From assembly GCA_049644325.1 (NCBI GenBank), contig JBARRR010000039.1:19867-83866 (forward strand): a DNA stretch of 64,000 nt, read 5' to 3'. This stretch comes from Candidatus Dormiibacterota bacterium (GTDB taxonomy: Bacteria; Chloroflexota; Dormibacteria; DASZGP01). The translations under genes and the position numbers were made by a program. The notes under the pieces are model-generated. The model did not search any database. It worked only from the letters and a program-made list of their open reading frames with translations, and was not told the origin of the DNA. Shown piece by piece: positions 20,680 to 51,273 of the stretch. The stretch's first letter is position 1. Every line of letters begins with the position of its first letter.

Positions 20680-21480
20680 ATGGGAAACCGGGCTCTCCAG
20701 CTCGTAACACTCATCGTCGCCGTGGCTGTCGGCGTCGGTGCGGCCTTCGGTGTGCGCGCAGTTCGAAACGTCTCCCCACAGCAGGCGTCCTCGAATACGT
20801 CAACCAGCTCCTCAACCTCGCCTTCGCCGAGCGCTAGCCCATCGATTTCGGCCTCGCCGACGCCCGCGGAATCCGCCTCGCCGGCCCCCGCGGCGTCGCC
20901 GGCGGCCCCCAGCCGGACAGGCGCCGCTTACCCGCAGCAGATCCAGGCCGGGAGCGTATACCAGTACTCCGGAAGCAGCAGCCTAGCTGCAGTAGCGAGC
21001 GACAGTTCGGACGGCGGGTCATCGGTGTGCGCCGGGATCAATACCACCAGCCAAGTTATCCCGCCTGGTTATCTGGCCGCCTACTTCGTGTCGGTGACGT
21101 TCCGGGACGGCCAGGTTATCTCATCCGGATACCTGCGCCAGGGAAGCGCCTCCAATGACTGGGGGCAGCTGCAAAACAACTCCACCAAGGATGCTAAACA
21201 GGAGTCGTCGCCGACCCCGGCTGGTACTCATACCTACTGCGTCACCAGGAGTGGTGGTGCCTGGATCACGACCGCGGACGGCGCCACTATCTACAGCACC
21301 ACGGCCGAGCCAGCCACATCGTTCGGCGGAACAACACTTAACTTCGAGTCCACCATCCAGCGCAAGGCCGACAACAGCGGTCCCGTCAAGGCGCTCAGCT
21401 TTTTTGTCCCGGGGTTCAAAGCCCTTGCCATCGACGGCCAGCCGCCGACCCAGCTCAAGGGCGCAACCAAGACCTTTTAA
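20680..21480 (+). CDS. Membrane-anchored Ser/Pro-rich extracytoplasmic protein (hypothetical).
   Basis: It has an N-terminal TM (LVTLIVAVAVGVGAAFG), a PSAS-rich linker and a globular C-terminal domain. Confidence 0.5.
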   Translation: MGNRALQLVTLIVAVAVGVGAAFGVRAVRNVSPQQASSNTSTSSSTSPSPSASPSISASPTPAESASPAPAASPAAPSRTGAAYPQQIQAGSVYQYSGSSSLAAVASDSSDGGSSVCAGINTTSQVIPPGYLAAYFVSVTFRDGQVISSGYLRQGSASNDWGQLQNNSTKDAKQESSPTPAGTHTYCVTRSGGAWITTADGATIYSTTAEPATSFGGTTLNFESTIQRKADNSGPVKALSFFVPGFKALAIDGQPPTQLKGATKTF

Positions 21481-21484
21481 CAAC

Positions 21485-22666
21485 GTGGGGCATCTCGACC
21501 TCGCCCCCCTTGCCGACCAGCTATTCGACAGCGCCGTCGACACGCGTCGCCATATTCACACCTACCCGGAGCTGGGATTCGAGGAGAAGGCCACCACCGC
21601 GCTGGTGCAGGAGCGGCTCTCGGCCCTGGGCCTGGAGGAGCTGGCCGCCGGCACCGAGACCGGCGCCGTCTTTCGCCTTAAGGGAGGTCGGCCCGGGCGC
21701 GGGGTGCTGCTCCGCGCCGACATCGATGCCCTGCCGGTGGCCGAAGAGGTGGACGTGCCGTTCCGCTCCAAGGTGGAGGGCGTCATGCATGCCTGCGGCC
21801 ACGACGCGCACGTCGCCATCCTCCTGGCCACCGCCGAGATTTTCTCGACCCTGGCGGAGGAACTGCCAGGCAGCTACGTCTTCCTATTTCAGCCGGCCGA
21901 GGAGCTGCTGGCGGGAGCCAGCCGGATGATCGAGGGCGGCGTCCTCGACGGACTCGGCGCCGAGCGGGTCCTGAGCCTCCACGTATCCAGCCCGCTCCCG
22001 CCCGGGCTGGTGGCGGTCCGCAGCGGCATCATGATGAGCCAGGCGCAGCCGATCACCGCCCGGCTGCGCGGCAGCGGCGGCCATGGCGCCCAGGCCCAGG
22101 CCGAGGGCAACGTGATCCTTGCGGTCTCGAGGCTGGCCTCGCGCCTTCCCGAGGTGGTGGAGGGGATGGAGTACGAGTGGGCGGCGTGCGCCTGCAGCAC
22201 CGGGGCCATCCGCGCCGGCACCGCCGCCAACGTCATCCCTCGCGACGCGGTACTACGGGGGTCGCTGCGCACGTATACCGCGGACCAGTACGGCGAGGCC
22301 CTGAAGCGGCTTGACGCGGTGGCCGCCGATGTCGCCTCCGAGTTCGGCGTCTCGGTCGACCTCGACCTGCCAACGCCGGTTCCGCCGGTGGAGAACCAGG
22401 CCGAGGCGGTCAGCACCTGGAGCGCGGCGGCGGCTGAGATGATCGGCGCCGCCAACGTGATCGCGATCCCGCCGGTGCCCATGAGCGACGACATCAGCGA
22501 GTTCCTCCGCCGCATCCCGGGGGTGCACTTCTTTGTCGGCGCCCGCCCCGGGACGGGCGAGCCGGCGCAGCACCACTCGTCCGAGTTCACCATCGACGAG
22601 GAGTCGATCAGGGTCGGGATCAAGACCATGGCGGCCGGGGCGGTGGCGCTGGCGGGGCGGGGGTGA
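21485..22666 (+). CDS. M20D-family amidohydrolase (hippurate hydrolase / N-acyl-amino-acid amidohydrolase-like).
   Basis: Motifs VMHACGHDAHVAILLA and RTHIHTYPELGFEE are present. The GTG start at 21485 avoids the 325-nt overlap implied by the ATG at 21155. Confidence 0.75.
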   Translation: MGHLDLAPLADQLFDSAVDTRRHIHTYPELGFEEKATTALVQERLSALGLEELAAGTETGAVFRLKGGRPGRGVLLRADIDALPVAEEVDVPFRSKVEGVMHACGHDAHVAILLATAEIFSTLAEELPGSYVFLFQPAEELLAGASRMIEGGVLDGLGAERVLSLHVSSPLPPGLVAVRSGIMMSQAQPITARLRGSGGHGAQAQAEGNVILAVSRLASRLPEVVEGMEYEWAACACSTGAIRAGTAANVIPRDAVLRGSLRTYTADQYGEALKRLDAVAADVASEFGVSVDLDLPTPVPPVENQAEAVSTWSAAAAEMIGAANVIAIPPVPMSDDISEFLRRIPGVHFFVGARPGTGEPAQHHSSEFTIDEESIRVGIKTMAAGAVALAGRG

Positions 22667-23607
22667 TGCCGGACTCGTCCGCGGAGCCGCCGGTCGGGGG
22701 CGAGCGGACGCGGGTCGGCTTCGTCGGCCTCGGCGTCATGGGCCTGCCCATGGCGCGCAACCTCAAGCAGGCCGGCTTCGACGTAACCGGTTGGGCCCGC
22801 CGGGAGGAGACGGCCGCGCGCGCTGGGGCCGAGGGCATCGAGACCCAGCCGACGCTGATCGATCTGGCCCGCGACCGCGAGTTCCTGGTGACCATGGTCA
22901 CGACCTCGCGGGACGTCGCCGACGTCGCCCTGGGCGAGGGAGGCCTGGTGGCCGCCGCCCCGGATGGCTCGGTCCTCATCGACATGAGCACGATCGCGCC
23001 GGCGACCAGCCGCCAGGTGGCGGCGGCCTGCGCCGCCCGCGGCATCGCGTTCCTCGACGCCCCCGTCAGCGGCGGCTCTTTCGGGGCCGAGGCGGGGACC
23101 CTGACGATCATGGCCGGCGGCGACGCCAGTGTCCTGGAGCGGGCGCGGCCGCTGTTCGAAGCGATGGGCGACCCGGGGCGCATCTTTCATGCCGGGCCGG
23201 TGGGCAGCGGCGAGATCATCAAGCTGGTCAACAACATGCTGGTCGGCTCGATCTCGGCCGCCACCCTTGAGGCGCTGATGGTCGGCGTCCGCGCCGGCGC
23301 CGACCTCAACACCCTGGTCGAGGTGCTCGAGGTCAGCAGCGGCGGCAGCACCCAGCTCTCCGGCCAGCTCAAGCTCCGGGCCCTCGCCGGGGAGTTCGAT
23401 CCGGGCTTCATGACCCGGCTGCTGGTCAAGGACATGAACCTGGCCGCGGACCTGGCTCGTGAGTCGGACCAGGCCACGCCGCTCACCGACCTGGCCCGCG
23501 CCCTGTTCCAGTCAGCCGTCGAGGCCGGCCACGCCGACCAGGACTACTCGGCGCTCCTCCAGGAGATGGAGCAAGCCTCGGGCACCCGCCTCCGTCTTAA
23601 CGGTTAG
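22663..23607 (+). CDS. NAD(P)-dependent oxidoreductase of the 3-hydroxyisobutyrate dehydrogenase (HIBADH) family.
   Basis: It has VGFVGLGVMGLPMARNL and GSGEIIKLVNNML. There is an ATGA overlap with the upstream gene. Confidence 0.8.
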   Translation: MMPDSSAEPPVGGERTRVGFVGLGVMGLPMARNLKQAGFDVTGWARREETAARAGAEGIETQPTLIDLARDREFLVTMVTTSRDVADVALGEGGLVAAAPDGSVLIDMSTIAPATSRQVAAACAARGIAFLDAPVSGGSFGAEAGTLTIMAGGDASVLERARPLFEAMGDPGRIFHAGPVGSGEIIKLVNNMLVGSISAATLEALMVGVRAGADLNTLVEVLEVSSGGSTQLSGQLKLRALAGEFDPGFMTRLLVKDMNLAADLARESDQATPLTDLARALFQSAVEAGHADQDYSALLQEMEQASGTRLRLNG

Positions 23608-23649
23608 TCGCAGCCACGCGGCACCCGCGCCATAGAATTCAGGGAGAGG

Positions 23650-24750
23650 ATGCGTTTACTCCACGTCGCTGACCTGCATCTCGATCGAGCCTTTGGGGGT
23701 ATGGCCTTCGCCGGGTGCGATGGCGCCCGCCGGCGCAGCCTCCTGCGCCAGGGGCTGGAATGGGCCGTCGACACCGCCATCGAGGGCAGGGCCGACGCCG
23801 TGACGATCGGCGGCGACCTCTTTGAGATCGAGCACATCACCAGTGACACTGCGGCGTTTATCGCCCGGCAACTGGGCCGGCTGGACTGTCCCGTGGTGCT
23901 GGCGGCGGGTAACCACGACCCCGCCACGGCGGCGTCGCCCTACCGGACCCTGGAGTGGGCCGCCAACGTCACCCTGGCCCTTGACCCCGTCCCTGTGCGC
24001 GTGGAGACGCCGGACGCCGTGATCTGGGCGCTGGGCTATGCCAGTCGCGAGATCGACGGCGCCGCCTTGAGGTCCTTCCATGTTCCTCCGAACGACGGTC
24101 GCGCCCAGCTGCTGGTGGTCCACGCCGTGGACCTGACCCGGATGGGGACCGACCGAGATTGGGGCAGCCTGGGCCTGCTGCAGCCGGATGTGCGGGCGAT
24201 GGGCATCGACCACGCCCTCCTCGGCCATATCCACTCCGGCCAGGCCGGCGAGCTGATGTCCTGGCCGGGCTCGCCGGTGCCGCTGGATCCCAGCGAGACC
24301 AGCGGCAACCATGGCGCCCTCTGGGTGGACGCGACCCCGGAGCGCGTGGCGGTGGAGGCGGTCGCAGCCGGCCTCAGCCGCTTCGGGGCGGTCAGCGTCG
24401 ACGTCGCCGAGGTGGCCGACTCGTCGGAGCTGGGCAGCCGGGTTCGCGAGAGGCTGGAGGCGAGCCCCGAGCGCGAACGGGCGCTGGTCAGCATCAGGCT
24501 TTACGGCCGCCGCGCCAAGAGCCTGGCGATCGAGCCGGCAGCGCTGGCGGCGGCCGCCTCCGAGTCGGTGATGGGCGCCCTGGTGGCCGACGCCACCGAG
24601 CCCGAGGTCGACCTGGCCCAGCTGGCCCAGGAGCCCAACGCCCGCGGCAGGGCGGTGGCGCGTCTACTCGAGGATGGCGGGGACGTCGGGTTGCGGGCGG
24701 CCCAGCTGGTGGTCGACGCATTCGAAGGCGACATCAGGGTCCCGGCGTGA
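23650..24750 (+). CDS. SbcD/Mre11-like metallophosphoesterase (YhaO-like DNA repair exonuclease).
   Basis: The N-terminus is MRLLHVADLHLD, with GGDLFE and AAGNHD calcineurin-like motifs. Confidence 0.75.
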   Translation: MRLLHVADLHLDRAFGGMAFAGCDGARRRSLLRQGLEWAVDTAIEGRADAVTIGGDLFEIEHITSDTAAFIARQLGRLDCPVVLAAGNHDPATAASPYRTLEWAANVTLALDPVPVRVETPDAVIWALGYASREIDGAALRSFHVPPNDGRAQLLVVHAVDLTRMGTDRDWGSLGLLQPDVRAMGIDHALLGHIHSGQAGELMSWPGSPVPLDPSETSGNHGALWVDATPERVAVEAVAAGLSRFGAVSVDVAEVADSSELGSRVRERLEASPERERALVSIRLYGRRAKSLAIEPAALAAAASESVMGALVADATEPEVDLAQLAQEPNARGRAVARLLEDGGDVGLRAAQLVVDAFEGDIRVPA

Positions 24751-24766
24751 CCATGGGAGCGGCGCG

Positions 24767-26734
24767 ATGAGACTGGTGTCGCTCCGGGTGCGGGGCTACC
24801 GAAGGTTCCACGACATCCTGGTCGACTGCGACCACGACCGGCTGCTGGTAGTCGGTCCCAACGAGGCCGGCAAGTCGACGCTGATGGAGTGCCTGCTGGC
24901 CGGGCTCTTCGGGCTGGCGCCCAGCAAGCGGGGCGGTGGCCACCAGGGAGCGCTGCGCGACGCATCACCCTGGAATGGCGAGCCCTGCGGCCTGAGCCTC
25001 GCATACCGGCTCGACAGCGGGCGCATGGTCGAGGTCGACTGGGACTTCAGCGGCGAGCGCACCCAGGTCATCGACCACACCGGGGGTGACGACATCAGCG
25101 CGGAGTTCACCGGCGGCACCCACGGCTGGCTCGACGTCGGCCAGGCGATGCTGGGTGTGTCTTCGACGGTCTTCCGCCAGTTCACCTGCGTGGGGGAGGG
25201 GGAGCTGGCGGTGATCAGCGACGATGCCGAGATCCGCGAGAGCCTGCTCCGCCTCAGCGATTCCGGGGTTGACGTGCTGGTGGAGCAGGCAATCACCCGC
25301 TTGGAGGACGCTGCCCGCCAGTCGACCATCCCCAAGGCCAACTCCGCCACCCGCCGCAACCAGCTGGAGCGCGACCTGGTCGCCGCCCAGAGGGAGCTGG
25401 ACCGGGTCACCGCGGCGCGGGCCGAGCTCGACTCCGACGTCCACGCGATTGCCCGGACCGAGTCGGCGATCGAGCGCGCCCGCGACGAGGTCGCCGGGAT
25501 GATGGCCGAGGACGACCGCCGCCAGGAGGAGCAGCGGCGCCTGAGCGCGGAGATCGAGCGGGCCTACGGCCGGCTGGCCGAGGCCGAGCTGCGCCGGGCG
25601 TCACTGAGCGCCGACGCGGATGTCCCCAAGGAGGGCCCGCCCTGGAGCGACGCCGACATCGAGACCGCCCGCCAGCTGCTGGTCAGTCCCGAGGAGGCGG
25701 GGAAGCGCCCGGGTCTGCTGCCGCTGATCGTCGGGCTGCTGCTCATCCTGGCGGGCATCGGCGGCCTCGCCGGTGGCCTGGTCGCCCAACTGGGGCCGAT
25801 GCTGGCCGCATCCGCCGCGGTGGCGGCCATTGGGGTCCTGCTCGTGACCCGAGGCGGCATGGGGGCCGCGCGGGCGCGGCTGAGAGTCGGTGCCATGACC
25901 TTCCCTGACAGGGCAGCGCTGATGATCGCCCTCGACCACCAGCGAGCGCGGCGCGAGCTGGCGCAACAGCAGAAGGCGGTTGACGACATCCAGGCGCGGC
26001 TCGACCAGCTGCTCCAGCCGGCTGCGGACATCGATGGCGGCGCGCCCCGCGAGGCCCAGGCCCGCCTCAGCGCCGCCAAGGTGCGACAGACCGAGCTGCG
26101 GCTGCAGCTGGAGCGGCAGCGCACGTCGTTGTCGGTTCGCACCAGCCAGGTCGGGGACGTCGCCGCACTCGAGGAGCAGGTGGCCGGGCTCGGAGCGCAG
26201 ATCGGCGAGCTGGAGGCGTTCGGTGAGTCGGCGCGTCTGGCGGCCCAGCACCTGAAGCAGGCGTCGGAGGAGATCCGACGCGCCTACGCGCCCAAGCTCC
26301 AGGCCTACCTTTCCCGTGACCTGCCACGGATCACGTCGGGACGCTATTCCGAGGCGGTGGTCAACGACAAGTTCGAGGTCATGGTCAGGGCTCCCGAAAC
26401 CAAACAGATGGTGGACCTGGGCCGCCTCAGCCGGGGCACCCAACAGCAGATCTACCTGCTGCTCCGTCTGGGCCTCCTCGACATCGTCGGCTCCAAGGCC
26501 GAACGGCTGCCACTGTTCCTTGACGACGCCCTCGCCCTGAGCGACGAGGACCGCCGCTCCGAGCTGCTCGCGGTGCTGGAGTCCGAGGACCGCCAGGTGA
26601 TCTACTTCACCGCGCAGGAGACCACCGCGGCATCCGCGTTCGCGGATGCGTGGCACCGCGTTCTTCTGCCCGGCCCCAGTGCCGCCGGCAGCGCGCCGCC
26701 CGAGCTCAAGGTTCTCGACTCGCCCCGGGGTTAG
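24767..26734 (+). CDS. SbcC/Rad50-like SMC-type ATPase (YhaN-like) with internal transmembrane segments.
   Basis: Walker A is VVGPNEAGKSTL, the signature-like motif is LSRGTQQQI and the Walker B/D-loop is LPLFLDDAL. There is a coiled-coil middle. Two hydrophobic helices are present: LLPLIVGLLLILAGIGGLAGGLV and LAASAAVAAIGVLLV. Confidence 0.75.
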   Translation: MRLVSLRVRGYRRFHDILVDCDHDRLLVVGPNEAGKSTLMECLLAGLFGLAPSKRGGGHQGALRDASPWNGEPCGLSLAYRLDSGRMVEVDWDFSGERTQVIDHTGGDDISAEFTGGTHGWLDVGQAMLGVSSTVFRQFTCVGEGELAVISDDAEIRESLLRLSDSGVDVLVEQAITRLEDAARQSTIPKANSATRRNQLERDLVAAQRELDRVTAARAELDSDVHAIARTESAIERARDEVAGMMAEDDRRQEEQRRLSAEIERAYGRLAEAELRRASLSADADVPKEGPPWSDADIETARQLLVSPEEAGKRPGLLPLIVGLLLILAGIGGLAGGLVAQLGPMLAASAAVAAIGVLLVTRGGMGAARARLRVGAMTFPDRAALMIALDHQRARRELAQQQKAVDDIQARLDQLLQPAADIDGGAPREAQARLSAAKVRQTELRLQLERQRTSLSVRTSQVGDVAALEEQVAGLGAQIGELEAFGESARLAAQHLKQASEEIRRAYAPKLQAYLSRDLPRITSGRYSEAVVNDKFEVMVRAPETKQMVDLGRLSRGTQQQIYLLLRLGLLDIVGSKAERLPLFLDDALALSDEDRRSELLAVLESEDRQVIYFTAQETTAASAFADAWHRVLLPGPSAAGSAPPELKVLDSPRG

Positions 26735-27900
26735 GCGCTCGCCCCGCCTCCCGGTCGGCGCTCGAGGATCCCGACCCGGGGGATGTCCTCATCGGCCCCG
26801 GACAGCGGCCACTCCGAACCAGGATTGCGGGTCAGCCACTCCAGGCCCTCGGCTGTGACCAGGTAGGTGTCCTCTGACTTGGCGCCGGGGATGGTGGGGT
26901 TCCAGGCGGTGGCCATGCCCGCCTCCAGCGTGTAGGTCTCCTCCGGCTTGGCGAAGACCTCGCGGCCGGCATAGCCGGTGGTGCCGCCCTGGTGATGCTC
27001 CTTCCAGTCGTCGTAGAAGCCGCCCGAGGCGTACGCCTGCTCACCGCCGCGGAAGGCGTCACCCAGGGTTATGCCGGGGCGGCTGCCGGCCAGGTAGGCG
27101 CGGTCGACGGCCACCACGGTGGCGTGCTTTTCCAGCAGCTCCGCCGGGGGGGCGCCGAAGCTGAGGCAGCGGGTGACGGAGGCGTGGAGGCCATGGCGTT
27201 CGGCCGTCACCGACGCGATCAGCCCGCCCTCGACCGTGGCCGGGGTAGGAACCAGGTGGCGGAAGCGCTCGGCCCGTGCCCGGGTGCCGACGAGGACCAC
27301 GCCGGCCTCGATGTCCCGGGCCTTGTGCGCGGCGGCGACCGTGCCGGCCACCTCGAGCTCGGACCAGCCTTCGCGGGCCTCCAGCAGGGCGGTCTCGAGG
27401 GCCTCGGTGGCGTCCAGGCCGAGCGCCCGGTAGCGGGAGACATCGGCCTCGCCCAGCCGCTGGCGGTCGGAGGCCAGCAGCGGCTCGGCCGCGCCCCAGC
27501 CGGGGACCGCGACGTCGCTGGCCCAGCGCGTGGCCGATGGCACCGCGGCGAGGGCCGACTGCCAGAGGGGTAGCTGGTACCAGGGCCGCACAACCACCGG
27601 CAGAGGCAGGTCGGCGAAGGGCTCGGCTCGGACCCGCGCCTCCTCGTTGTTGGGGACCAGCAGCCAGGCGCCGCTGTCGGTGACCAGCAGGCCGCAGAGC
27701 CCACGCGGGGAGTCGAGGACTACACGGTTGCCTCGGCCGCCGGTCAACCAGGCGACGTTGGCCCAGCCCTCGAGGTAGACGGCTTCGACCTCGGCCGCGC
27801 CCATGGCCGCCCGCAGCTTTGAGAGCTTGGCCCTGACCTCGGCCTGGTCGCCATGGGCCCGGGTTGCGGGGCCGGCCTCGACCAGCCCCCAGTCCGCCAT
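26731..27900 (-). CDS. M24-family metallopeptidase (Xaa-Pro aminopeptidase / creatinase-like).
   Basis: A pita-bread C-terminal domain is recognisable (HHQGGTTGYAGRE, EAGMATAWNP, SEDTYLVT). The start is taken at MADWGL (27900) to avoid overlapping the upstream gene. Confidence 0.6.
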   Translation of the reverse strand: MADWGLVEAGPATRAHGDQAEVRAKLSKLRAAMGAAEVEAVYLEGWANVAWLTGGRGNRVVLDSPRGLCGLLVTDSGAWLLVPNNEEARVRAEPFADLPLPVVVRPWYQLPLWQSALAAVPSATRWASDVAVPGWGAAEPLLASDRQRLGEADVSRYRALGLDATEALETALLEAREGWSELEVAGTVAAAHKARDIEAGVVLVGTRARAERFRHLVPTPATVEGGLIASVTAERHGLHASVTRCLSFGAPPAELLEKHATVVAVDRAYLAGSRPGITLGDAFRGGEQAYASGGFYDDWKEHHQGGTTGYAGREVFAKPEETYTLEAGMATAWNPTIPGAKSEDTYLVTAEGLEWLTRNPGSEWPLSGADEDIPRVGILERRPGGGASA

Positions 27901-27904
27901 CCGC

Positions 27905-28432
27905 CTAGCCTTGCGGGCTGGGGTTGAAGGCGACGTTGCCGGGGTCGAGCTTGCGGAAGTCCCAGCTGACGATCTTCTCGGGCTGCAGCCGCAGCCAGGC
28001 GTGGCGGCCGTCGTGGAAGACAACGTCACCGCCCATGTACCGGCGCGCAAGGATCAGCTCAGCTGTCTCCAGCTCGGGGTTCGGCTCCCCGGTTCGAGGC
28101 TGCTCGCCGATGGGCTCAACCCGGCCGATGAACTCGATGCCTCGGAGCTCGAAGTAATCGTCGCCGGTATCGACCACCACCGAAACCCGTGGGTCGCGCA
28201 TCAGGTTGGTCCACCGCTGGCTCTTGAGGATGGAGTAGAGCCAGATGCTGGCGCCATCCCACGCGTACCACATGGGCGTGACGTGGGGGCGGCCGTCGAA
28301 GCCGATCGAGCCAACCCGGCAGGTTCGCTGCTCGGCTAGCAGCTGCTCCATCTCCTCGGGCGTCAGGGCAATCCGGCGGGCCCGCCGCTGCTGCTGGGGT
28401 AGGTTGGGGGTGCTGCCCTCGGGCTCGGTCAT
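27905..28432 (-). CDS. Pyridoxamine 5-prime-phosphate oxidase family protein (PPOX class, probably F420-dependent).
   Basis: It has CRVGSIGFDGRPHVTPMWYAWDG and EKIVSWD. Confidence 0.7.
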   Translation of the reverse strand: MTEPEGSTPNLPQQQRRARRIALTPEEMEQLLAEQRTCRVGSIGFDGRPHVTPMWYAWDGASIWLYSILKSQRWTNLMRDPRVSVVVDTGDDYFELRGIEFIGRVEPIGEQPRTGEPNPELETAELILARRYMGGDVVFHDGRHAWLRLQPEKIVSWDFRKLDPGNVAFNPSPQG

Positions 28433-28690
28433 CGAGGCGGATTATGCCCGACCCGGGGCCGAGCCGCCTCCACTTCCTCGGCGTCGGGGTGGCCTATCGT
28501 GGGCATGTGTCAACGTTCCATGGCACACGATTTCGAGTTGACTTTTTGGTGCGACTGGGGGTACTGTCCCGTACAACGCACCGCGTCATGACTGATGTGT
28601 CATATTCTATGATCCGTCGGACGGACGCAGGCTTGAATCATTGTCCGGCCGGGGGTCTCTCGAACCCCCGGAGGACTACCGAGGTACCCC

Positions 28691-39609: not shown

Positions 39610-39692
39610 GTCGGCGTGGTGGAACGGTAGACACGCCAGCTTTAGGAGCTGGTCCCCGCGAGGGGGTGGAGGTTCGAGTCCTCTCGCCGACA
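39610..39692 (+). tRNA. tRNA-Leu (anticodon UAG), class II with a long variable arm.
   Basis: The acceptor stem is 7 bp, GTCGGCG/CGCCGAC. The anticodon stem is CCAGC/GCTGG with loop TTTAGGA. The variable arm is a hairpin, TCCCCGCGAGGGGGT. The T-loop is TTCGAGT with stem GGAGG/CCTCT. The discriminator is A and CCA is not encoded. Confidence 0.85.
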
Positions 39693-50887: not shown

Positions 50888-51273
50888 GTGTTGCGTGACG
50901 AGTCGGCAAGGTGACCGCGGCGGGAGCGATCCCGTCGAGGAAAGTCCGAGCTCCGTAGAGCAGAGTGCCGGGTAACACCCGGCGGGCGTGAGCCCAGGGA
51001 AAGTGCCACAGAAAATACACAGCCTCGGCGTAAGCCGGGGTGAAGGTGAAATGGTGGAGGTAAGAGCCCACCGGCGACCGGGAGACCGGCCGGCCTGGTA
51101 AACCCCACTCGGAGCAAGACCTAAAGGAGGACGCCAAGGCTGCTCGCCAAGTCCTCGGGTTGGTCGCTGGAGGCGCCGGGTAACCGGCGCCGTAGATAGA
51201 TGGTCACCACCCCAAGGCCTTTACCGCCTAGGGGTACAGAACTCGGCTTACCGCCGGTCTCGCCACGCAACAC
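50888..51273 (+). ncRNA. rnpB: RNase P RNA, bacterial type A.
   Basis: Conserved blocks are present: GGAAAGTCCGAGCTCC, CACAGAAAATACA, GGTGAAATGGTGGAGGTAAGAGCCCACC, GGTAAACCCCACTCGGAGCAAGACC and ACAGAACTCGGCTTA. The P1 helix pairs 5-prime GTGTTGCGTGACGAG with 3-prime CTCGCCACGCAACAC. Confidence 0.9.

Follow-up and report, generated by a model that had tools for sequence, protein, structure and literature searches.

A YhaO/YhaN-like nuclease-ATPase pair of Candidatus Dormiibacterota with a predicted transmembrane hairpin in place of the Rad50 zinc hook

Results

A nuclease gene and an ATPase gene lie 16 nucleotides apart

We analyzed a 64,000-nucleotide stretch of DNA from an uncultured Candidatus Dormiibacterota bacterium (GenBank assembly GCA_049644325.1, contig JBARRR010000039.1, positions 19,867 to 83,866; hereafter the window, with positions counted from its first letter), and specifically the two co-oriented open reading frames (ORFs) that fill positions 23650-26734 of its plus strand. 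The first ORF (23650-24750, +) codes for a YhaO/SbcF-like nuclease of the Mre11/SbcD family that is 366 residues long, starts with MRLLHVADLHLD, contains the motifs GGDLF, GNHD and GHIH, and ends with a TGA stop codon at 24748-24750. The second ORF (24767-26734, +) codes for a YhaN/SbcE-like ATPase of the Rad50/SbcC fold that is 655 residues long. Its ATG at 24767 leaves an intergenic gap of 16 nucleotides (nt), in which a candidate ribosome-binding site, GGGAG, can be read at 24755-24759 (+), 7 nt 5' of the start codon. An initial annotation, made from the letters of this DNA, had proposed a Mre11-like phosphoesterase followed 16 nt later by a Rad50/SbcC-like ATPase. Both ORFs are found exactly as it placed them, both folds are recovered by Foldseek as described below, and the motifs that it named (GNHD at nuclease residues 87-90, and GPNEAGKST, LSRGTQQQ and LFLDDAL in the ATPase) are all present.

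The longest possible ATPase ORF opens at 24674, inside the nuclease gene. Judged by sequence comparison the correct start is 24767, because all homologues begin there (MRL..LR[VI]RGFRR) and because the deposited protein agrees; this is NCBI MGB2939178.1, named 'AAA family ATPase [Candidatus Dormiibacterota bacterium]', with 100% identity along all 655 residues. The nuclease and ATPase genes of relatives overlap by 4 nt, which suggests that the two proteins are co-translated as one unit. A promoter scan of 22500-28500 gave no sigma-70-like promoter, and of the only three terminator-like sites in the same region two lie within coding sequence. The gap 5' of the nuclease gene is 42 nt, suggesting that the pair may be co-transcribed with the metabolic genes upstream. 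At the other end, the ATPase gene shares its final 4 nt with the 3' end of a convergent M24 (Xaa-Pro/creatinase-type) peptidase ORF (26731-28050, -), so that there is no intergenic room for a terminator. The shared nucleotides (26731-26734) are given by 2 nt of the final Gly codon of the ATPase and the first 2 nt of its stop codon (26732-26734). A tblastn search of the window gave no second copy of either gene.

The nuclease keeps every catalytic ligand of the Mre11 fold

The nuclease passes the Pfam Metallophos model (33.8 bits versus a cutoff of 21.5) and falls short of the curated NCBIfam SbcD models, with 49.8 bits against TIGR00619 sbcD (E 4e-13; cutoff 77.65) and 29.2 bits against NF008206 (cutoff 450); its matches to the Mre11 models of NCBIfam are likewise sub-threshold. 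SbcD and Mre11 chains in the Protein Data Bank (PDB) were matched by sequence, among them SbcD 4lty (E 2e-6). The AlphaFold2 model of the nuclease has a predicted local distance difference test (pLDDT) score of 94.2 and consists of a phosphoesterase domain, a capping domain and two C-terminal helices (residues 331-339 and 345-359). When this model was compared with the PDB by Foldseek, the top 50 matches were all Mre11/SbcD (E 1.2e-13 to 1e-10, TM-score ~0.6).

In alignment A2, which holds 61 nuclease homologues with identity down to 21%, the invariant columns are D8, H10, G55, D56, G87, N88, H89, D90, H158, G192, H193, H195 and G207. These residues correspond to the five Mre11 phosphoesterase motifs and to all of the metal ligands (D8, H10, D56, N88, H89, H158, H193 and H195). 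They include D8 and H10 of motif I (D8-L-H10; 23671-23679, +), the whole of motif III (G87-N-H-D90; 23908-23919, +) and G192, H193 and H195 of motif V (G192-H-I-H195; 24223-24234, +). The nuclease is a Mre11-fold di-metal phosphoesterase with every catalytic ligand kept. In the model its helices 331-339 and 345-359 have the appearance of the helix-loop-helix with which Mre11/SbcD grips the coiled coil of its partner, and they probably grip the Rad50-like coiled coil in the same way.

The ATPase has a Rad50-type head and belongs with YhaN

The ATPase passes two Pfam models, AAA_23 (41.7 bits, above cutoff) and AAA_27 (PF13514; 32.3 bits versus a cutoff of 22, E 9.3e-8, residues 1-52), and all of the ATPase homologues listed carry PF13514. 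Its relatives are named 'uncharacterized protein YhaN' by the Joint Genome Institute (JGI). The NCBIfam Rad50 model NF003034 gives only 25.7 bits versus a cutoff of 700, and the NCBIfam SbcC model has no match to the ATPase. The profile comparison with the YhaN and Rad50 families that the initial annotation had recommended comes out in favor of YhaN.

Rad50 head constructs in the PDB were matched by sequence at the N- and C-termini of the ATPase (E 8e-6). When the AlphaFold2 model (pLDDT 83.5) was searched with Foldseek, Chaetomium Rad50, archaeal Rad50 and Escherichia coli SbcC came first (E 7.7e-13 to 4e-10), with further matches to Lamassu LmuB, SMC, MukB and JetC. The protein is a Rad50-fold ATP-binding cassette (ABC) ATPase whose N-terminal half-head (residues 1-190) and C-terminal half-head (residues 523-635) are joined by an antiparallel helical arm, the boundaries here and below being those that DSSP assigns on the AlphaFold2 model.

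A hydrophobic hairpin occupies the apex of the arm

The ascending arm is a single uninterrupted helix (residues 196-283; 25352-25615, +; pLDDT 80-96), followed by a short helix (residues 295-306) and then by two predicted transmembrane helices. Helix 1 (residues 318-340, LPLIVGLLLILAGIGGLAGGLVA; 25718-25786, +) is called from hydropathy and from the AlphaFold2 helix, and helix 2 (residues 343-362, GPMLAASAAVAAIGVLLVTR; 25793-25852, +) is Ala-rich and less hydrophobic than helix 1. A small beta-hairpin (residues 372-379) leads to the descending arm, which consists of helices 382-416, 426-461 and 465-522 (25910-26332, +), the last of which enters the C-terminal ATPase lobe. Each arm comprises ~88-115 residues, which at 0.15 nm per residue of a canonical coiled coil gives an estimated arm length of ~13-16 nm. 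The hydrophobic hairpin, of ~45 residues, is built from helices of 23 and 20 residues with a turn of 2-3 residues between them, and it sits at mid-length, at the apex that joins the two arms, where Rad50 carries its zinc hook. This modifies the earlier description of a short coiled coil interrupted by two strongly hydrophobic helices: the arms are indeed short and both helices are there, but the coiled coil is not interrupted, since the hairpin caps the arms at their tip. The only cysteines in the ATPase are at positions 21, 42, 74 and 141, and with none after residue 141 there is no CxxC zinc hook, so that the standard SbcCD with an ordinary zinc hook against which the initial annotation had set its proposal is not what is found here.

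Several properties of this segment bear on its relation to the membrane. The Kyte-Doolittle maxima in a 19-residue window are 2.55 for helix 1 and 2.2 for helix 2, compared with a classical transmembrane threshold of 1.6, and the stretch between R314 and R362 is free of charged residues. Basic residues flank the hairpin on both sides (K313 and R314 before helix 1; R362, R368, R370 and R372 after helix 2). This positive-inside pattern would place both ends in the cytoplasm, which is the sole topology that fits cytoplasmic ATPase heads. Conservation was measured in an alignment of 67 ATPase homologues, across which charged residues make up 3% of helix 1 and 6% of helix 2 versus 27-39% of the other segments; mean hydropathy is +1.96 and +1.73 in the two helices and negative elsewhere; and majority identity in the two helices (0.40 and 0.49) is among the lowest in the protein. 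A segment that appears to keep its hydrophobicity while its sequence varies is typical of lipid-facing helices. Helix 1 is also rich in small-xxx-small motifs (AGIGG, GGLAG, GLAGG), which would fit tight helix-helix packing. The Wimley-White octanol sum is +8.1 kcal/mol for residues 317-335 and is positive too in a window over 341-362; note that this scale is unspecific, as the soluble M24 peptidase reaches +6.4, and it was given little weight in the transmembrane call. Overall, a hairpin inserted in the membrane is the best reading of the segment and is strongly predicted from its sequence.

The catalytic motifs of the ATPase deviate from those of SbcC

In the same alignment, N32, G35 and K36 are invariant in the Walker A motif GPNEAGKST (residues 30-38; 24854-24880, +), S555 and G557 in the ABC signature LSRGTQQQ (residues 554-561; 26426-26449, +), and D586, D587 and D593 in the Walker B/D-loop segment LFLDDALALSD (residues 583-593; 26513-26545, +). 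Rad50, SbcC and SMC proteins have D-E at the end of Walker B, where the Glu is the catalytic base of ABC ATPases. The window ATPase instead has D586-D587, and 'DD' is present in 129 of the 144 family representatives described below. A second deviation concerns the H-loop. The position that follows the conserved Q610-V-I-Y-F-T615 is A616/Q617, and a His is found there in only three of the 67 sequences; in the DNA this segment, FTAQE, lies at 26606-26623 (residues 614-619). The RecF model TIGR00611 matches residues 553-615 (E 9.7e-9) with 34.8 bits, far below its cutoff of 172. Because Asp stands in for the catalytic Glu of Walker B (LFLDD, as in RecF) and the H-loop lacks its His, we infer that ATP hydrolysis is probably slow and switch-like rather than that of an SbcC-like motor.

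The family is widespread and its two genes stay together

The central hydrophobic block recurs beyond chance, being present at mid-length in 119 of the 120 homologues obtained by a word-indexed search. A profile search of 1.84 billion cluster representatives (50% identity) with the ATPase returned 11,084 proteins at E<=1e-30 and 31,606 at E<=1e-10, and we took the full-length proteins among its top 150, 144 in number, as family representatives. By a positional hydropathy criterion the block is present in 141 of these 144, with a median span of 49 residues and a centre at 0.50 +/- 0.02 of protein length where measured. A stricter criterion, an uncharged run of at least 35 residues, gave 67 of 144, which is an under-count because many homologues hold charged residues in a longer loop. 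The representatives are 612-1,282 residues long (median 727), indicating that arm length varies within the family and that the 655-residue ATPase is a short-arm variant.

Relatives of the ATPase occur in Dormibacteria, Limnocylindria, Anaerolineae and other Chloroflexota; in Eremiobacterota, Vulcanimicrobiota, Clostridia, Oscillospiraceae, Mollicutes and Actinomycetes; and in Desulfuromonadales, other Deltaproteobacteria, Rhodothermales, Gemmatimonadaceae, Verrucomicrobiia and Patescibacteria. The earlier match to the YhaO/YhaN module is borne out by AAA_27 and by the published description of SbcE, but the range then given for it, Firmicutes and Actinobacteria, was too narrow by many phyla. 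We take the YhaN family to be COG4717.

When 86 loci were fetched, a nuclease homologue was found as the immediate upstream neighbor, in the same orientation, wherever the sequence reaches that far and similarity is detectable, and gene calls agree. The nuclease-ATPase pairing thus recurs across many phyla. As for the search for conserved partners that had been advised, clustering of the flanking ORFs of these 86 loci gave no third partner gene conserved across lineages, only lineage-specific synteny and low-complexity shadow ORFs. One such neighbor is an EamA-family (DMT) transporter gene that immediately follows the YhaN-like gene, in the same orientation, in 34 of the loci among L026-L085 (for example L049:6488-7429). 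In these Limnocylindria and other Chloroflexota loci the adjacency is probably lineage-specific synteny rather than a sign of a functional partner.

A separate, long YhaN paralogue is present in other Dormibacterota and Chloroflexota metagenome-assembled genomes (MAGs), at loci L012-L025 and L054 (for example L025:3682-4749 on the minus strand, and L013:2359-6657), where the tblastn match extends over ~3.1-3.2 kb. This length would fit the ~1,065-residue proteins P0051-P0055, which may correspond to it. The long paralogue is paired with a YhaO-like nuclease of its own that shares 33-38% identity with the window nuclease, and at 13 of its loci a divergent HTH-WYL-WCX (PafBC-like) regulator gene lies directly upstream. 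This regulator is circumstantial evidence that hints at DNA-damage-responsive control of the paralogue.

In Dormibacteria the pair sits among conserved metabolic genes

The neighborhood of the pair is syntenic among Dormibacteria relatives whose ATPases are 51-77% identical. The shared order is malic enzyme, a hypothetical protein, (an M20 peptidase), an NAD-binding (3-hydroxyisobutyrate dehydrogenase-like) dehydrogenase, the nuclease and the ATPase, followed by the convergent M24 peptidase, PNPOx and acyl-CoA dehydrogenase. A tblastn search gave one weak match among 72,556 plasmids and two weak partial matches among 50,697 phage records. Since the neighborhood is conserved down to 51% ATPase identity, these genes appear to be vertically inherited core genes of the Dormibacteria chromosome rather than part of a mobile island, and no defense-island context is seen around the pair, which is flanked by housekeeping and metabolic genes.

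Farther upstream in the window (20680-21480, +) lies a gene for a 266-residue protein that opens with a hydrophobic segment and continues as a long low-complexity linker rich in Ser, Pro and Ala. No Pfam model matches it, nor does any match the 268-275-residue product of the gene that takes its position in related Dormibacteria. The only Rfam or ARAGORN matches in the window are a bacterial class A RNase P RNA (50899-51266, +; 272 bits) and a tRNA-Leu (39610-39692, +).

Discussion

A proposed membrane-anchored relative of Mre11-Rad50

Among described systems the nearest is that of Bacillus subtilis, where SbcE is an SMC-like protein closest to SbcC with deviant Walker A, Walker B and signature motifs, and with a unique, hydrophobic central domain without CxxC that is completely insoluble in E. 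coli when produced alone, as is the full-length protein (PMC2811018). An SbcD-like gene, yhaO, lies upstream of yhaN, and SbcE and YhaO interact in the yeast two-hybrid assay (PMC2811018). Loss of SbcE causes sensitivity to double-strand breaks that is worse upon deletion of recN or sbcC, and mildly reduces transformation, and SbcE forms polar foci in competent cells (PMC2811018). SbcEF/YhaON is counted as one of four SMC-like systems of Gram-positive bacteria and is termed 'poorly characterized' (PMC6452273).

The window ATPase passes AAA_27 above its gathering score, its relatives bear YhaN names at the JGI and it matches the published description of SbcE. On these grounds we assign the pair to YhaO/YhaN, and it is very likely a membrane-anchored Mre11/Rad50 paralogue of this family. 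In the mechanism that we propose, the hairpin would insert in the cytoplasmic membrane with both ends cytoplasmic, so that a head module of two nucleases and two ATPases would hang ~13-16 nm beneath it. Small-xxx-small packing of Gly and Ala between hairpins in the bilayer would replace the apex-dimerization role of the zinc hook. ATP binding would shut the two heads around DNA and position the nuclease, as in SbcCD, and the subsequent hydrolysis would be slow and switch-like. The likeliest job of such a machine would be the trimming or opening of DNA ends and hairpins near the membrane, be they broken chromosome ends, incoming DNA or both, because this is the role that genetics indicates for B. 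subtilis SbcE with its involvement in break repair and transformation and its polar foci in competent cells. We give even chances to DNA-end processing at the membrane for repair and/or for incoming DNA as the function of the pair. Taken as a whole, a YhaO/YhaN (SbcF/SbcE)-type complex that is paralogous to SbcCD/Mre11-Rad50 and works by this mechanism is the best explanation of the locus, and we regard it as likely.

A number of points weigh against this explanation. For topology, the transmembrane call drew only on hydropathy scales; helix 2 is Ala-rich and only moderately hydrophobic; and with a turn of only 2-3 residues the hairpin could possibly be inserted in a monotopic or re-entrant manner instead of spanning the membrane fully. 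The stoichiometry, DNA binding, nuclease activity and ATPase activity that we assume are all drawn by homology, and the DD Walker B together with the lost H-loop His could make the ATPase cycle substantially unlike that of SbcCD. A same-strand context of metabolic genes says nothing on DNA repair. The 2009 paper on SbcE sees foci on the nucleoid as well as at the poles and nowhere terms SbcE membrane-bound (PMC2811018), and B. subtilis SbcEF is dispensable for surviving nick-derived breaks (bioRxiv 10.1101/2025.02.28.640380). In the searchable literature we found no paper that treats SbcEF/YhaON as a membrane protein. The idea of a membrane anchor is thus undeveloped there, yet hydropathy leads directly to it. 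In databases, the automated annotation of YhaN presumably already reflects a membrane anchor.

Alternative explanations

One alternative keeps the complex in the cytoplasm, as an SbcCD paralogue in which the hairpins of two ATPase subunits form a buried, soluble four-helix bundle that dimerizes the apex in place of the zinc hook. In its favor, the Rad50/SMC apex is described as a dimerization module that can be swapped between types (PMC6969161), SbcE-YFP is reported to form foci on nucleoids as well as at the poles (PMC2811018), and an Ala/Gly-rich helix 2 would suit tight helix packing too. A stretch of ~45 residues without charge and with Kyte-Doolittle values up to 2.55 is, however, far beyond what soluble helical bundles have, and it stands in a protein whose remainder is 27-39% charged. 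Its hydrophobicity is conserved over variable sequence, as in lipid-facing helices, Lys/Arg clusters lie on both of its flanks, and the insolubility of SbcE in E. coli, both as isolated central domain and as full-length protein, is also against a soluble bundle (PMC2811018). We consider this arrangement improbable. A divergent, short, but otherwise standard SbcCD, orthologous to canonical Mre11-Rad50, is far less probable still, even though the names assigned automatically at the JGI include 'DNA repair exonuclease SbcCD ATPase/nuclease subunit' and the closest solved structures are those of SbcCD and Mre11-Rad50. SbcC is ~1,050 residues long, much longer than the 655 residues of this ATPase; a hydrophobic apex takes the place of the CxxC hook; Walker B reads DD and no H-loop His is present; the SbcD models are far below their cutoffs and the SbcC model is without a match. 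We rejected canonical SbcCD on the absence of its defining zinc hook and the failure of the curated models, and the initial annotation was correct that the pair departs from it.

The other alternative is an anti-phage or anti-plasmid defense module, in which a membrane-posted SMC-like sensor and its nuclease would destroy injected DNA, akin to components of Lamassu, Gabija or MADS. The PADLOC mad3 model matches ATPase residues 2-295 with E 8.4e-20, there are weaker matches to GajA, LmuB (E 5e-6), PtuA and JetC, and Foldseek likewise finds Lamassu LmuB and JetC; a nuclease posted at the membrane would be well placed to meet entering DNA, and SbcE affects transformation (PMC2811018). Against this, the curated NCBIfam MAD3 model NF047739 gives only 14.7 bits versus a cutoff of 420, the PADLOC matches other than mad3 are confined to the generic P-loop N-terminus, and no PADLOC model picks up the nuclease. 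The adjacent genes are metabolic and include neither a methyltransferase nor any other MADS or Lamassu partner. The locus is syntenic in Dormibacteria down to 51% identity with housekeeping flanks rather than a variable island, the pair is virtually absent from plasmids and phages, and as a stable unit of two genes the family has a very wide distribution. A defense role therefore seems to us about as improbable as the soluble bundle. Among specific systems, MADS was rejected on the MAD3 score and on the absence from the locus of the 8-gene mad operon with its methyltransferase, and Lamassu on the weakness of its LmuB match, on the lack of any PADLOC match to the nuclease and on the lack of a third conserved gene, where Lamassu combines its LmuB-type SMC with an LmuA effector and a kleisin-like LmuC partner. 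As a separate observation, the PADLOC mad3 match covers window positions 24767-25651, the N-terminal half of the ATPase, while the curated MAD3 model fails, and the PADLOC model may be broad enough to catch YhaN-family proteins, leading to possible false calls of defense systems.

Significance

The locus is an ordinary short-arm member, in an uncultured phylum, of a large, widespread and understudied family first described in Bacillus. It matters because a module with a hydrophobic apex, a DD Walker B and an obligatory Mre11-like partner is conserved far beyond Firmicutes, and because this module also exists in a compact 655-residue form whose AlphaFold2 model is of good confidence. Should the membrane tether of our preferred YhaO/YhaN explanation prove true, the hairpin would be a distinct solution to holding Rad50 arms together, and it would tie DNA-end processing to the cell envelope. 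The locus is better annotated as a YhaO/YhaN (SbcF/SbcE)-like pair than as 'AAA family ATPase' or 'SbcCD'. A bolder and more doubtful extension is that the whole YhaN/SbcE family might be a membrane-anchored Mre11-Rad50 machine, in which a transmembrane hairpin replaces the zinc hook and the heads survey a shell 13-40 nm beneath the membrane as gatekeepers for DNA that crosses or touches it, including DNA from transformation, conjugation or phages and chromosome ends tethered to the membrane, with a slow, RecF-like DD-type ATPase switch. The Dormibacterial short-arm form would be its minimal version and, if this tentative extension is true, an attractive structural target.

Comparison with known systems

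The ATPase shares an SMC/Rad50-like head and a coiled coil with LmuB of Lamassu, JetC of Wadjet and Mad3 of MADS, as is evident from structural and profile similarity. It differs from them in that their partner genes are absent at the locus, the curated MAD3 model is not reached and the context is core chromosomal; moreover, these three proteins are not described with a transmembrane apex. With RecF it shares the region from signature to D-loop, which matches the RecF model, and a Walker B that ends in DD. RecF, whose DD Walker B goes with a weak, switch-like ATPase that acts as a dimerization switch, is unlike the window ATPase in that it lacks a coiled-coil arm, a membrane segment and a partner nuclease, and the model match is far under its cutoff.

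The likeness to SbcCD/Mre11-Rad50 (E. coli 6s6v and 7yzp, and the archaeal and eukaryotic complexes) extends over both proteins: a Mre11 nuclease fold with all metal ligands, a capping domain and a C-terminal helix pair on the one side, a bipartite ABC head with an antiparallel coiled coil on the other, and adjacent genes. The differences are a predicted transmembrane hairpin at the apex instead of a CxxC zinc hook, far shorter arms, DD instead of DE in Walker B, no H-loop His, and scores below the curated SbcC and SbcD models.

Finally, in regards to B. subtilis SbcE/SbcF (YhaN/YhaO), the window ATPase is shorter than SbcE (655 versus 963 residues), with arms of ~88-115 rather than ~300 residues, and its identity to long members of the family is only ~25-35% and confined to the heads. 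There is no yhaM-like exoribonuclease gene downstream as there is in Bacillus, and the host is an uncultured Dormibacterota (Chloroflexota-related) MAG and not a Firmicute. The phenotypes in break repair, competence and polar localization are those of B. subtilis. The two systems are nevertheless alike in having an SbcD-like nuclease gene directly upstream of an SMC/Rad50-like ATPase gene, an N-terminal AAA_27 domain above the Pfam gathering score, and two helical arms parted by a hydrophobic central domain that lacks CxxC and is conserved in position. At the level of sequence, the comparison supports that the Dormibacterial pair has the testable defining features of the YhaN/SbcE family, apart from the ~300-residue arms.

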